Source: Capsulimonadaceae bacterium (GTDB taxonomy: Bacteria; Armatimonadota; Armatimonadia; Armatimonadales; Capsulimonadaceae). Taken from it: a DNA stretch of 64,000 nt. The notes under the pieces are model-generated. The model searched no databases, was not told the origin of the DNA, and saw only the letters and a program-made list of their open reading frames with translations. A program made the translations under genes and the position numbers. Of the stretch, positions 8,245 through 15,349 are shown in pieces. How positions within the stretch are numbered: the first letter of the stretch is position 1; each line of letters begins with the position of its first letter. The stretch lies in the NCBI GenBank assembly GCA_965215505.1, contig OZ244065.1, positions 3,616,001 to 3,680,000 on the forward strand. Reading direction: 5' to 3'.

Positions 8245-8438
8245 TCAGGCCATGCCGTTCAGGCCATGCCGTTCAGGCCATGCCGTTCAGGCCATGCCGT
8301 TCAGGCCATGCCGTTCAGGCCATGCCGTTCAGGCCATGCCGTTCAGGCCATGCCGTTCAGGCCATGCCGTTCAGGCCATGCCGTTCAGGCCATGCCGTTC
8401 AGGCCATGCCGTTCAGGCCATGCCGTTCAGGCCATGCC
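8245..8438. repeat. Tandem repeat, 14-bp unit TCAGGCCATGCCGT x ~14
   Basis: Perfect head-to-tail copies with no spacers, abutting a GCCATGAATGGC palindromic element. Confidence 0.95.
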
Positions 8439-11191: not shown

Positions 11192-11821
11192 TTACCCCAC
11201 CCCCGCCCGGCACAGGGCACACAGCGGCATCGTTTCGGCCTCGGCGCCCTCAGACCCGCCGGGGGCGGCCAGCGCGCCGCAGCGGGCGCAGGGGGACCAG
11301 CCGCGGCGGCGTTTCCACTCGTCGGCGCGGGCGGCGTGGAGCATGACGGCGCGGATGCGCCCGCGCAGGGAGTCCTCGGTGATGGCGGCGAGGGCCGTTT
11401 CGATCCGCAGGCTCGCTTCCCTCGGGAGCGTGATGCGGGCCAGCTCCTGGGCGGTCGGGGTTGCCGGGGCGGCGGCGGGCGGCTTCTTCTTGTCGCGGGC
11501 CAGCCCGGAAGCCTTGAAGTGGATGTCGGTCAGGACGCGCCCGCCCAGCTTGCTGTTCAGGCGGCGCAGCATGTCCTCTTTGAGCAAAGTCAGCTCGTTG
11601 GCCCACACGCTGTTCTTGACGCGCACGAACAGGACGCCGTCGCGCACCGACTCGACCTGGGTGACGCCCGCCACCTGGGGGCCGACGACGCCGACCCAGT
11701 GGACTTTCGCCAGGTGGGGGCGGAGCATCTGCGCGATCTCCTGCGACTGCAAGAAGCCGCTGACGGCGCTTGACGCCGGTGCCATCCCGCGCGTCCTCCG
11801 GGGGGCTTGCGGATCTCTCAT
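11192..11821 (-). CDS. DUF721/DciA family protein with C-terminal Zn ribbon
   Basis: WVGVVGPQVAGVT, GVLFVRVKNSVWANEL; CARC..CALC; ATGA-coupled to recF stop. Confidence 0.8.
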   Translation of the reverse strand: MRDPQAPRRTRGMAPASSAVSGFLQSQEIAQMLRPHLAKVHWVGVVGPQVAGVTQVESVRDGVLFVRVKNSVWANELTLLKEDMLRRLNSKLGGRVLTDIHFKASGLARDKKKPPAAAPATPTAQELARITLPREASLRIETALAAITEDSLRGRIRAVMLHAARADEWKRRRGWSPCARCGALAAPGGSEGAEAETMPLCALCRAGVG

Positions 11822-12948
11822 TGCTTGGTGACCTCCCCGTCGGTGACGGAGTAGACGGCGGCGCGCTCCAGAACGGCGGGCGAGAAGGCGCGCAGGTTGG
11901 TACACGAGAGGAAGGTCTGCGACCCGGCCCGCGCGGTCAGGTCGAACAGCAGGCCGCGCCGGGCGTCGTCGAGGTCCGAAAGCACGTCGTCCAGCAGCAG
12001 CAGGGGCGGCTCGCCGACCAGCTCTTCTATCAGTTGCCGCTCGGCGAGTTTCAGGGACAGGGCGACGGTCCGCTGCTGGCCCTGCGACCCGAACAGGCGG
12101 CAGTCCTGGCCATTGACCAGGAAGGCGATGTCGTCGCGCTGCGGCCCGCGCACGGTGACGCCGCGCGCCGCCTCCTCCCCGGCGACGGAGGCGAGTTCTT
12201 CCAGGAACCGGCCCTGGATGGCGGACGCTTCGGTCAGGCCGTCAATCGGGAACGACGGCAGGTAGGTGACTTGCAGCTCGTCGCGCTGGTCGCTCAGGGT
12301 CCGGTGCGTCTCGGAGGCGAGCTGGGCCAGCCGTTCCAGGAACAGCCGGCGGCGCTCGACCAGCCGCGCCCCGTGCTGGGCCAGGCCCTCGTTCCAGGCC
12401 GGCAGGCTCTCGCGGGCCGCGCCGGAGATGCGCCCGTCGCGCAGGTCGCGCAGGAGCCGGTTGCGCTGCTCCAGAGTCTTGCGGTAGGACCCGAGGGCGA
12501 GGACGTAGCGCGGGGAGGTCTGGGCGATCTCCAGGTCCAGGAACCGGCGGCGGATCGCCGGCTCGCCCCGGATGATCTCCAGGTCGCCGCTGTCAAAGAG
12601 AACGGCGTTGAGCTGCCCGATGACCTCCGAAAGCCGCGTGTGCTTGACGCCGTTGATCCGGGCGGCCTTCTTCTCGGTCTGGGACAGCGTCATCTCGACC
12701 TCGATGTCGCTGGTCTTCTCCCGGACGACGTCGGCGGTGATCCGGGCGGCGGGCGTGCCGAATCGGACCAGCTCGACGTCCTTGCCGGCCCGCGACGACT
12801 TGCTGGTCGCCAGGATGTAGAGGCTTTCCAGCAGGTTGCTCTTGCCCTGGGCGTTGCGCCCGACAAAGATGTTCAGGCCCTCCCCCGGCTCGATGCGGAG
12901 CGTCCCGTAATTCCGAAAGTTGTCCAGTTTGAGCGATGTGACGTGCAT
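11818..12948 (-). CDS. recF: DNA replication/repair protein RecF
   Basis: LDNFRNY, GRNAQGKSNLLE, GSQGQQR, LLLDDVLSDLD. Confidence 0.97.
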   Translation of the reverse strand: MHVTSLKLDNFRNYGTLRIEPGEGLNIFVGRNAQGKSNLLESLYILATSKSSRAGKDVELVRFGTPAARITADVVREKTSDIEVEMTLSQTEKKAARINGVKHTRLSEVIGQLNAVLFDSGDLEIIRGEPAIRRRFLDLEIAQTSPRYVLALGSYRKTLEQRNRLLRDLRDGRISGAARESLPAWNEGLAQHGARLVERRRLFLERLAQLASETHRTLSDQRDELQVTYLPSFPIDGLTEASAIQGRFLEELASVAGEEAARGVTVRGPQRDDIAFLVNGQDCRLFGSQGQQRTVALSLKLAERQLIEELVGEPPLLLLDDVLSDLDDARRGLLFDLTARAGSQTFLSCTNLRAFSPAVLERAAVYSVTDGEVTKQ

Positions 12949-12961
12949 GGCGCGTGACTCT

Positions 12962-13429
12962 TCTATTCTTAGCATAAGAGTCTAAATTCTTAGTAGTGAT
13001 AGTAGTAGGTGTGTGACTCACATGTGACTCAACGAATCCCGGCGGGGCCGATGTGCCCGGATCGCCCGGTTTTTGCCAGATTCCCGCGAGTCTCCCCAGG
13101 CGGTTTGACGACCTGGGGCTGGAATCGCTTAATTCCGAGAGTCACGCTGAGTCACAGTCGCCTGTGACTCAACTGTGACTCAACTGTGACTCAAGGCCGG
13201 ATTTTGTGACTCTGTGACTCTCGCGGATTCGTTAAGTCACAAAAGGTGGTCGTTGAGTCACACTATGTCACACTGAGTCACAGGTTGAGTCACAGGCTCT
13301 CGGCCCTAACCCCGGCGCTCGCGCCGGGGTTAGGGCCGAAACGACACGGCCTCGTGTTCTGTCACAGTGTCACACCTTCTGTCACACCTGTGACACAAGG
13401 CGCTTTTGTGTGACACAGCCTGTGACACT
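12962..13429. other. oriC: Putative replication origin (oriC) with non-canonical TGAGTCACA boxes
   Basis: Intergenic region immediately downstream of dnaA; ~19 GTCACA/TGTGAC cores, 9 perfect TGAGTCACA; TAG trios at 12991-13008; AT-rich 12962-12990. Confidence 0.75.
13300..13339. terminator. Perfect 19-bp stem hairpin downstream of dnaA
   Basis: TCGGCCCTAACCCCGGCGC-TC-GCGCCGGGGTTAGGGCCGA; no clear U-tract. Confidence 0.45.
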
Positions 13430-15176
13430 ACCCGCCCCGCTCGATCTCCTGCCGGATTCTGCCGATCAAGGACAGTATCTGCGGGTCCTCCTCGATCTCC
13501 TTCTGGAGACGCACGGCGGCGTGGACGATGGCCGTGTGACTCTTCAGGCCGAACGTCGCCGCAAGTGCGGACAGCGGCACGCCGCCCAGTTCTTTCGTCA
13601 GGTACATCGCCACCTGGCGCGCGAACCCGGCGTCGCCGTGCAAGCGCGTCGCCCGGTTGCTGCGCCCGCCGCCGGCCAGGATCTGGTCCCGCGAGACGCC
13701 CATCTGCGAGGCGACCGCGTCAATGATCCGGTCCACCGTCGGCCCGCCCGCGCTCATCGGCAGGCGCGGCGGCAGGACGAAGTCGCCATTGGTCGGCGGC
13801 GCGTGGTCCTCGGGATGAGCAGACGCCGACTCGCGTCCAAACCCTTCGCGCGGCGGCATCTGTTTGACGTAGTAGCTGCTCAGGACGTCTGAGGCGAGCT
13901 GCTTGGTGACGGGGCTGCGGGCCAGCGAGGCGTAGGCCATCAGCTTGATCAGGGCGCCCTCCAGGGAGCGGATGTTGCTCTGGATGAGGTTCGCCATGAA
14001 GGTGATCACGTCGTCGGGGATCGCCAGGTTCTCCAGAATGGCTTTGCGCTGGAGGATCGCCTCCCGCATCTCGAGTTCCGGCGGGGCGATGTCGGCGACC
14101 AGGCCGCACTCGAAGCGCGACTGGAGCCGCTCGTCCATCGCCTTCAGCTCGCGCGGCGAGCGGTCGCTGGTCAGGACGATCTGCTTGTTCATCTGGTGCA
14201 GGACGTTGAAGGTGTGGAAGAACTCTTCTTTGGTCTGCTCCTTGGAGGCCAGCATCTGGACATCATCCACCAGCCACACGTCCACGCTGCGGTAGGCCCG
14301 CCGGAAGTCCTCCATCTTCTTGTCGCGCAGGGCGGCCACATAGTGGTTCGTGAAGGTCTCCCCGCTGACGTAGGCCACGCGCGCCTGCGGCAGCATCAGG
14401 CGGATCTGGTGGCCGATGGCGTGAGCTAAATGAGTCTTTCCAAGACCTGGGCTGCCGTACAAGAACAGTGGATTATACGTCTTGCCGGGCGACTGCGCGA
14501 CGGCGACCGCGCCGGCCTGGGCGAGCCGGTTGGACTTGCCGACGACGAAGTTGTCGAAGGTGTAGCGCGGGTTGAGCGGCGAGGCGATCAGCTCATTGGT
14601 GAGCTGGCTGCGGACGCCGCGCCCGATGCTGCCGCCGCTGCCGCCCGCGTCCGACCCATCGGGGACCAGGGCGAGTTCGGACTGCCCGGCGGGGACCGGC
14701 AAGAGCGACTCGGGCGAGGGGGCGGGCCGGGCCAGCGGCGCGGCGGCCTGCTGCAACGGCAATGGCTGTTCGCCGAGGAGCGGCTGGACGTCGGGCGTCG
14801 AGATGACGAACCGGACCTGGACGGCGGGGATGTCCAGGAACTGCGCCAGGTGCAGGGCCAGGGTCTGGGCGTACTTGGCCTCGACGAAGGTCCGGGCGAA
14901 CGACGACGGGGCACCCAGGACGACGACCGGCAGGCTGCCGGCGGAGGGCGGGCTGTAGGAGAGCGGCTTGAGCGGGCGGAGCCAGTTGCCGATGGTCTGG
15001 GGGGTGGCCGACCCGGCCAGGGCGCGCAGGGTCCGCTCCCAGGCCTTGCGGAGCGCGGTCAGGCCCTCCTCCTCGCCCAGTTCCAGCTGCTGGTCCCGAA
15101 AAGACTGGTCTTTGAAAGACTGGTCTTTGAGGGGCTGGTCGGAGGCGTCGTCGCTGGGTGTCGGGTGGCTGCTCAC
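13428..15176 (-). CDS. dnaA: Chromosomal replication initiator DnaA
   Basis: LNPRYTFDNFVVGKSN, YNPLFLYGSPGLGKTHL, LVDDVQ, EEFFHTFN, RLQSRF, NIRSLEGAL, ARQVAMYL; GTG 15176 has AGGAAA RBS (alternative TTG 15209). Confidence 0.95.
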   Translation of the reverse strand: MSSHPTPSDDASDQPLKDQSFKDQSFRDQQLELGEEEGLTALRKAWERTLRALAGSATPQTIGNWLRPLKPLSYSPPSAGSLPVVVLGAPSSFARTFVEAKYAQTLALHLAQFLDIPAVQVRFVISTPDVQPLLGEQPLPLQQAAAPLARPAPSPESLLPVPAGQSELALVPDGSDAGGSGGSIGRGVRSQLTNELIASPLNPRYTFDNFVVGKSNRLAQAGAVAVAQSPGKTYNPLFLYGSPGLGKTHLAHAIGHQIRLMLPQARVAYVSGETFTNHYVAALRDKKMEDFRRAYRSVDVWLVDDVQMLASKEQTKEEFFHTFNVLHQMNKQIVLTSDRSPRELKAMDERLQSRFECGLVADIAPPELEMREAILQRKAILENLAIPDDVITFMANLIQSNIRSLEGALIKLMAYASLARSPVTKQLASDVLSSYYVKQMPPREGFGRESASAHPEDHAPPTNGDFVLPPRLPMSAGGPTVDRIIDAVASQMGVSRDQILAGGGRSNRATRLHGDAGFARQVAMYLTKELGGVPLSALAATFGLKSHTAIVHAAVRLQKEIEEDPQILSLIGRIRQEIERGG

Positions 15177-15349
15177 GGGTTTCCTGGGAAGACAAGAGTG
15201 GGAAGACAATAGAAGGAGGCGGCCATTTCGATCCCGAAATCGCCGCCCCGTCGCCGTCCATTATACCGCATATCCCGCCGCCCGGCAAGCCGATTTTTCC
15301 GCCCGCCTGCTTTGGTCTCGTGCGCTTGACGCCTGCGGGAATATGGCCC

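Follow-up and report, generated by a model that had tools for sequence, protein, structure and literature searches.

A candidate chromosomal origin built on a non-canonical DnaA box between dnaA and recF in a Capsulimonadaceae bacterium

Examination of a 64,000-nucleotide stretch from a Capsulimonadaceae bacterium of the phylum Armatimonadota (assembly GCA_965215505.1, contig OZ244065.1, positions 3,616,001 to 3,680,000; henceforth the window, in whose numbering the coordinates of the locus are given) indicates that the 479-bp gap between its dnaA and recF genes is probably the chromosomal replication origin (oriC), with DnaA boxes of the form TGWGTCACA instead of TTATCCACA. We place the probability of this reading at roughly 80%. 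Its central proposal is that the 9-mer TGAGTCACA works like a DnaA box and yet falls outside the canonical sequence class. A lineage-specific box and an origin at this place had been proposed in the first-pass annotation of this DNA, and the proposal gains support, at the level of sequence comparison, from the layout of DnaA-trios beside the boxes, the equivalence of these boxes in position to canonical ones in a sister family, the covariation of the DnaA protein with box type, and the invariance of the key elements across five genomes.

The gap spans 12949-13427 of a window that belongs to a contig of 6,177,771 bp with 66.5% GC, and the genes that flank it, both on the minus strand, are indeed dnaA and recF as first annotated. 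Within it we recovered all nine previously listed perfect copies of TGAGTCACA/TGTGACTCA (starting at 13012, 13023, 13148, 13163, 13174, 13185, 13254, 13274 and 13286); in 100 shuffles the count averaged 0.23 and never exceeded 2, and the entire genome holds 17 copies of TGAGTCACA, inclusive of the nine in the gap. The core GTCACA is found 20 times in 12937-13429, and any other 500-bp interval of the genome contains at most four. Beyond the perfect sites these cores comprise ten variants in 13205-13429, in agreement with the approximate number given earlier (AGAGTCACA, TCTGTCACA, AGTGTCACA and TGTGTCACA twice each, TAAGTCACA and TATGTCACA once each), and one more at 12937 inside recF; two GTCACG variants can also be read off the sequence at 12953-12961 and 13138-13146. 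The boxes lie on both strands and, as had been remarked, are frequently in phase: nine of the 18 spacings between neighbors measure 10-12 bp and four measure 20-22 bp. A consensus of T-G-(A/T)-G-T-C-A-C-A was derived from the 19 sites in 13012-13429, with the sites that have A at position 3 occupying 13012-13294 and six with T at position 3 occupying 13358-13429. A matrix prepared from the gap's own boxes reaches at least 11 bits at 20 sites in the gap vis-a-vis 231 in the remaining genome.

Comparison with TTATCCACA shows three mismatches in nine positions, placing TGAGTCACA beyond the limit of one or two mismatches of the canonical class TTATNCACA: it keeps T1, A3 and C6-A7-C8-A9, and differs by T to G at positions 2 and 4 and by C to T at position 5. 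The reported absence of the canonical box from the gap held up, with no match to TTATCCACA in 12940-13430 even at two mismatches, and a genome-wide scan for a canonical box cluster found none, the densest 600 bp having no more than two sites at up to one mismatch. We also detected no boxes upstream of dnaA, where the ORFs are without a Pfam match. The first-pass annotation had singled out a second, canonical dnaA accompanied by TTATCCACA boxes as the finding that would speak against it; since dnaA is single-copy and canonical boxes form no cluster anywhere in the genome, this objection is removed. Other dense repeated 7-mers considered as origin marks across the genome were rejected as GC-rich repeats or arrays unrelated to origins.

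Studies on the basal unwinding system of Bacillus subtilis describe a layout, predicted in most bacteria, of tandem DnaA boxes, DnaA-trios and AT-rich DNA (PMC8287927, PMC10721633); the associated rule asks for at least three trios (3'-NAN-5', consensus 3'-GAT-5') within 16 bp of a DnaA box, and tandem boxes are given as the commonest form of the system (PMC8287927). The recF-proximal end of the gap displays the same succession of elements. Two co-oriented TGAGTCACA sites on the minus strand (13012-13020 and 13023-13031), predicted to act as the platform boxes, are separated by 2 bp, within the approximately 3 bp allowed for such a pair. Three base pairs (GTG) from the 13012 box there is a plus-strand run of six trios, TAG TAG TGA TAG TAG TAG (12991-13008), which read 3'-GAT-5' away from the boxes and conform to the above rule provided that TGAGTCACA is counted as a DnaA box. 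Runs of at least five TAG/TAA/TGA units occur only twice in the 6.18-Mb genome, and this is one of the two. Past the trios lies an AT-rich patch (12962-12990), a candidate DNA-unwinding element, with a GC fraction of 0.30 in 12960-12999 vs 0.665 for the genome, on the far side of which, 5 bp from the recF start, is the minus-strand variant box AGAGTCACG (12953-12961). In the other direction the platform is followed by a box-free, GC-rich spacer of 106 bp (13032-13137, GC up to 0.725) and then by the main array of 12 sites spanning 13138-13294, seven of them on the plus strand (13138, again AGAGTCACG, and 13148, 13233, 13254, 13264, 13274 and 13286) and five on the minus strand (13163, 13174, 13185, 13205 and 13213). 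The six T-at-position-3 boxes (TCT/AGT/TGT-GTCACA) of 13358-13429 are arranged as three on the plus strand followed by three on the minus strand, the last overlapping the dnaA stop codon.

Among genomes of the same genus, whose DnaA proteins are 75-91% identical to that of the window, we examined the DNA downstream of dnaA in 20 (G045 is not part of this count). Just downstream of dnaA they have 10-24 GTCACA cores, except at contig ends, and in 18 of the 20 a trio run is succeeded by GTGAC-type tandem boxes; in the remaining two, G011 and G018, the contig ends there. A multiple alignment of five genomes of the genus revealed that the AT-rich motif (its GAGTCT-AATTCTT part), the trios and the boxes are invariant, that the box columns of the main array are conserved, and that the 106-bp spacer is almost unalignable. 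Boxes that stay invariant while the spacer next to them diverges are what selection on binding sites would be expected to produce. The box at 12953-12961 likewise matches a conserved (T/C)GTGA(C/T)TCT in four of the five genomes, the row of the fifth (G043) beginning past it. In G047, also of the same genus, the T-at-position-3 box TGTGACACA occupies the trio-proximal platform position, and for this reason both box subclasses appear to serve the same role.

The sister family, the second family of the same order (11 genomes, DnaA about 50% identical), provides the nearest outgroup. Its dnaA loci contain 0-4 GTCACA cores in the 11 genomes, and in seven of the 11 a CCACA-type word is repeated 10-15 times instead, this word being TTATCCACA in four loci and TTTTCCACA in the other three. 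Six of the 11 loci have TGTGGATAA or TGTGGAAA at a distance of 4-14 bp past a TAG-trio run, in the same position and orientation as TGTGACTCA in the window. Because place and orientation beside the trios agree, the variant 9-mer appears to replace the canonical DnaA box of this outgroup. One sister-family locus (L026, genome G024) shows a six-TAG trio run by dnaA with neither a canonical nor a GTCACA-type box; it has the repeated words GTGTTCTA and AGAACACT, which could represent either a further variant of the box or a repeat of unrelated nature, although its DnaA has a canonical domain IV (GGRDHTT).

We then turned to the protein that is predicted to read these boxes. The window DnaA (13428-15209, minus strand), the sole copy in the genome, has the domains I, III (AAA+) and IV that typify the family, and its closest solved structure is that of B. 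subtilis DnaA (PDB: 8BTG). All its Pfam matches are above cut-off, Bac_DnaA with 228 bits, DnaA_N with 27 bits and Bac_DnaA_C, which covers domain IV, with only 42 bits. Base contacts of DnaA have been mapped to positions 399, 423, 432-435 and 438-439 (PMC5043019); a review assigns the reading of the 3' TnCACA to the helix at 434-451 and that of the 5' TTA to the loop bearing Arg399 (PMC5742627). Aligning domain IV to that of Escherichia coli (PDB: 1J1V), with numbering taken from the residues named in PMC5043019 (R432, D433-H434, T435 and P423), revealed the substitutions P423S, G431L, R432K, D433S, T436A and L438V, along with retention of H434, T435 and H439, such that the canonical contact set (R399, P423, R432, D433, H434, T435, L438 and H439) is not matched. 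In addition, the segment from the R399 equivalent to Q408 is seven residues longer than in the sister family (GGGRSNRATRLHGDAGFARQ vs GKKRDKETARARQ). Whereas the sister-family proteins keep P423 and GGRDHTT, those of the window genus have S423, GLKSHTA and the seven-residue insertion. These changes suggest a correspondence in which box positions 2, 4 and 5 would face the altered residues (P423S, R432K and D433S) and the lengthened loop, with both CACA and its readers being kept. Such a domain IV is rare, with 96 clusters recovered at E<=1e-5 among 5.8 billion clustered proteins. As an aside, many DnaA frames of the same genus are 830-1000 residues long owing to an insertion of about 300-400 residues near residue 258-264, just past Walker A; the long frames (e.g. 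L012-L018, L129 and L139) match the LAGLIDADG family PF14528, and one also matches the intein-splicing family PF14890, which points to an intein that the window dnaA is without.

A survey of the organism's own family (39 genomes in 10 genera) revealed further pairings of box and protein. In genus g12, helix 5 reads GLKSHTA, the loop is five residues longer and the box is TGAGTCACA; in g16 it reads GCKTHAA or GCKNHTS, the loop is longer by seven or eight residues and the box is again TGAGTCACA. In g14 the helix reads GCKNRTA or GCNNRTA, with an arginine at position 434, the loop insertion is present, and the box is TGAGTCACG, which ends in G, with GAGTCATCA found too in one genome. Genus g15 combines GCKNHSA and a loop devoid of insertion with the boxes CGAGTCACA/GGAGTCACA, and g10 combines GDVSHSA with the box GATTCAC. 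The boxes of g12, g14, g15 and g16 each lie beside trios and an AT-rich patch, and in these four genera, as in 18 of the 20 genomes of the window genus, a conserved box cluster adjoins dnaA. Judging from these comparisons, we consider it an even bet that the family re-coded its DnaA-DNA recognition pair in steps that are still readable side by side in the sister family, the window genus, g15, g14 and g10.

By analogy with the basal unwinding system of B. subtilis, the locus could operate as follows. Domain IV of DnaA would bind the co-oriented boxes at 13012-13031, and from this platform an ATP-DnaA oligomer would grow along one strand onto the six adjacent TAG trios. The oligomer would then open the AT-rich patch at 12962-12990. 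The approximately 18 additional boxes of 13138-13429, placed for the most part at multiples of a helical turn, would hold the remaining DnaA assembly, and DciA, encoded two genes away, would help in loading the helicase for an origin firing from this site.

Several observations weigh against this reading, and most of them concern the polarity of the chromosome. Cumulative G-C reaches its minimum, where an origin is usually expected, at the contig start, and peaks at 3.29 Mb; third-codon-position skew corrected for coding strand agrees with this (minimum 6.17 Mb, maximum 3.30 Mb). Hence, skew alone cannot place the origin at the gap. The extremes of skew and gene-strand bias at 3.29-3.30 Mb lie 0.33 Mb, or 5% of the chromosome, from the gap, and an origin at the gap entails C-rich leading strands, the inverse of the classical rule. 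Furthermore, dnaN (3.018 Mb, plus strand) is head-on to an origin at the gap, as are three of 11 highly expressed loci (an ATPase at 5.131 Mb, a GroEL at 0.253 Mb and rpsB at 5.745 Mb). For the one-contig genomes G047 and G016 of the same genus, 60 20-kb stretches per genome, amounting to about 28% of its length, were sampled, and both curves are jagged with no clear switch at dnaA; jagged skew is also reported for Fimbriimonas, another member of Armatimonadota, in a genome paper whose account of the origin mentions almost no canonical boxes, and those only scattered (PMC4072686). Beyond polarity, the distant genera g13, g17 and g18 show no box cluster, repeated word or trio-box unit in the 1.2-2.5 kb downstream of dnaA, and the covariation of box and DnaA is suggestive rather than statistical proof because the lineages are few and related.

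Examination of gene orientation nonetheless favors the side of the chromosome on which the gap lies. Minus-strand genes dominate from 0 to 3.285 Mb, after which the curve of strand bias is flat to about 3.6 Mb and then rises. Third-position GC skew is -0.145 and -0.153 in majority-strand genes, and -0.087 and -0.069 in minority-strand genes; the skew of DNA outside ORFs is only +/-0.007. At third codon positions, C-richness is found on the strand that bears the rRNA operon, the ribosomal-protein cluster and the majority of genes. The origin is therefore either at the contig start, with most genes head-on, or at 3.3-3.6 Mb with C-rich leading strands, and the expressed genes favor the latter: eight of the 11 highly expressed loci are co-directional with forks leaving 3.3-3.63 Mb, namely the sole 16S gene (4.113 Mb, plus), the L2/EF-G/EF-Tu/rpoC cluster (2.03-2.05 Mb, minus), a second tuf (1.03 Mb, minus), L20 (1.708 Mb, minus), one GroEL (1.306 Mb, minus) and three ATPase-family matches. 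On this evidence the gap is on the origin side of the chromosome: it sits where the flat zone ends on the right, at a distance of 0.33 Mb from the extreme. The check by GC skew that the first-pass annotation had put forward gives no clean match to the gap, the switch being displaced by 0.33 Mb and inverted in sign.

This displacement lends itself to an alternative, namely that the gap is a genuine DnaA-box cluster that titrates or regulates DnaA, or controls the expression of recF and dnaA, in the manner of datA or DARS in E. coli or the DnaA-box clusters of B. subtilis, with the active origin being either at the contig start, the classical skew minimum, or, close to parB, at the polarity switch near 3.30 Mb. 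The extremes at 3.29-3.30 Mb and about 0 Mb rather than 3.629 Mb, the best ParB match at 3,297,449 and the variant box only 5 bp from the start of recF are all in keeping with such a role. However, it leaves unexplained the six trios placed 3 bp from tandem boxes and the AT-rich patch, parts that titration sites lack, as well as a layout common to five genera; elsewhere the genome has no more than four boxes per 500 bp and no canonical cluster, and an origin at the contig start would put the sole rRNA operon and the main ribosomal-protein/rpoC cluster head-on. We accordingly regard a cluster without origin activity as improbable.

A second alternative holds that the TGAGTCACA repeats are sites of another lineage-specific protein, an origin regulator comparable to CtrA, MtrA or HP1021 of other phyla, and that DnaA binds something else in or near the gap. 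The departure of the motif from the canonical box at three of nine positions would fit this, as would the distribution of the T-at-position-3 subclass, which recurs outside the gap in three small groups of 3-4 sites, in the manner of a transcription-factor motif; given this clustering, a second protein could be reading that subclass. The three clusters of TGTCACA-type boxes (2,786,455-2,786,497; 3,023,009-3,023,054; 4,460,185-4,460,215) are located at promoter-like sites and arranged like 13358-13429, and may be either secondary DnaA sites of the datA/DARS kind or sites of another factor. Against a different reader for the whole set, the boxes hold the exact place and orientation of the canonical DnaA boxes of the sister family beside the trios, the base readers of DnaA differ with box type (including H434R where the last base is changed), and the gap offers DnaA nothing within two mismatches of a canonical box; moreover, the two subclasses are interchangeable at the trio-proximal position in G047. 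We find this alternative marginally less credible than the preceding one. That the boxes are a functionless repeat, a mobile-element remnant or slippage array that chances to adjoin dnaA, is barely conceivable: short direct repeats at 10-12 bp could come from duplication, and a perfect 14-bp tandem array does lie 4.5 kb off, but the boxes are on both strands with diverged flanks, the cluster is unique in the genome, and its positions are kept across genomes whose DnaA proteins are only 64-91% identical while the spacers diverge. An oriC read by a divergent DnaA hence continues to be the interpretation that we prefer.

The rest of the locus comprises the following features. The gene recF (11818-12948, minus strand) is taken to start with the ATG at 12948 although the longest ORF extends to 12975, for in the long ORF the Pfam matches to SMC_N, AAA_15 and AAA_23 set in only at residues 10-14 and the resulting MHVTSL N-terminus is as in the recF of a relative. 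Downstream of it is a gene of the DciA family (helicase operator; 11192-11905, minus strand; PF05258, 66.9 bits). Between the two box arrays there is a perfect 19-bp inverted repeat with a 2-nt loop (13300-13339), the only copy in the window and only partially conserved in relatives, which could serve as the terminator hairpin of dnaA or as a site for a protein. A promoter scan of the gap recovered no sigma-70-like site and two weak terminator-like matches. An extra AGAGTCACA box is situated on the minus strand within the 3' end of dnaA (13535-13543), and the aforementioned 14-bp tandem array, TCAGGCCATGCCGT in 13.9 copies of 100% identity, is at 8245-8438 of the window.

Elsewhere on the chromosome, a search with the parS consensus gave one uninformative match, with two mismatches. 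Two short patterns for dif gave six and three weak matches, and these were not used as evidence. Near-identical, dif-like 28-mers at 617,056 and 617,742 flank a low-GC cassette of about 640 bp with one small ORF, 77 kb from the antipode of the gap and with no switch in local polarity; the pair looks like an Xer-type module or an element inserted at dif. Two repeat-rich regions were also observed: 3,763,501-3,764,400, where CCGGTCC occurs 12-15 times per 600 bp beside a 459-residue ParB-like gene (3,765,417-3,765,710), and 4,998,000-4,999,800, a very dense array in which GGAGGCC occurs up to 42 times per 600 bp.

Few protein-DNA pairs in bacteria are as conserved as DnaA and its 9-bp box, and origin predictors rely on this box together with GC skew. 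Both of these standard cues fail in the present genome, with the box differing at three positions, two of them within the 5' half, which in E. coli is read by Arg399, and with the skew minimum being on the opposite side of the chromosome. If the reading offered here is correct, the leading strand is C-rich and both cues would mislead in this lineage. If the pairings of residue and box are causal, they would constitute a natural recognition code for domain IV of DnaA, from residue to box position, and would imply that an initiator and its origin can drift together with viability kept. Since canonical and variant pairs exist within one order, swaps of residues and boxes could be used to test how the specificity of DnaA is encoded and how initiator and origin co-evolve. 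The candidate also gives this poorly studied phylum an origin annotation to work from: the Fimbriimonas genome paper, in its treatment of the subject, found no convincing origin (PMC4072686). Full-text literature searches (predicted-origin databases such as DoriC/Ori-Finder and paper supplements being outside their reach) recovered no paper tying TGAGTCACA/TGTGACTCA to DnaA and none on a replication origin in Capsulimonas, Capsulimonadaceae or Armatimonadota; a search on Armatimonadetes origins and DnaA boxes yielded only the Fimbriimonas paper and a DciA preprint.

Among known systems the closest counterpart is oriC of B. subtilis, with which the gap shares a co-oriented box pair (boxes 6 and 7 in that organism), at least three 3'-GAT-5' trios, an AT-rich stretch and a position downstream of dnaA. 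It is unlike that origin in that the predicted box is TGAGTCACA rather than TTATCCACA, and in that the gene after the gap is recF, because dnaN lies 0.6 Mb away, with dciA being the loader-type gene nearby. Secondary DnaA sites, such as datA and DARS of E. coli and the DnaA-box clusters outside oriC in B. subtilis, are resembled by the three small TGTCACA-type clusters of this genome and not by the gap, with its trios, AT-rich element and about 20 boxes. Relative to E. coli, the gap's box is also a 9-mer with a CACA end, as in TTATNCACA, and H434, T435 and H439 are common to the two proteins (PDB: 1J1V); the window DnaA differs from its E. coli counterpart in its altered base readers and loop insertion, and in the low score of its domain IV. 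Variants of the DnaA box exist in cyanobacteria and actinobacteria. Lineage-specific boxes are indeed an already known phenomenon, as in Helicobacter and other Epsilonproteobacteria, for which the box TCATTCACN with the core TTCAC has been described (PMC5043019), and Thermotoga maritima is likewise described as having its own DnaA box (PMC10316083). As in the Epsilonproteobacterial and other such cases, departure from the E. coli box is here accompanied by change in helix 5 of domain IV, and origin finders need a species-specific box. Unlike these earlier variants, which depart at the level of a phylum or class, the change in the present case falls within one order, where canonical and variant forms occur side by side along with graded sub-variants.

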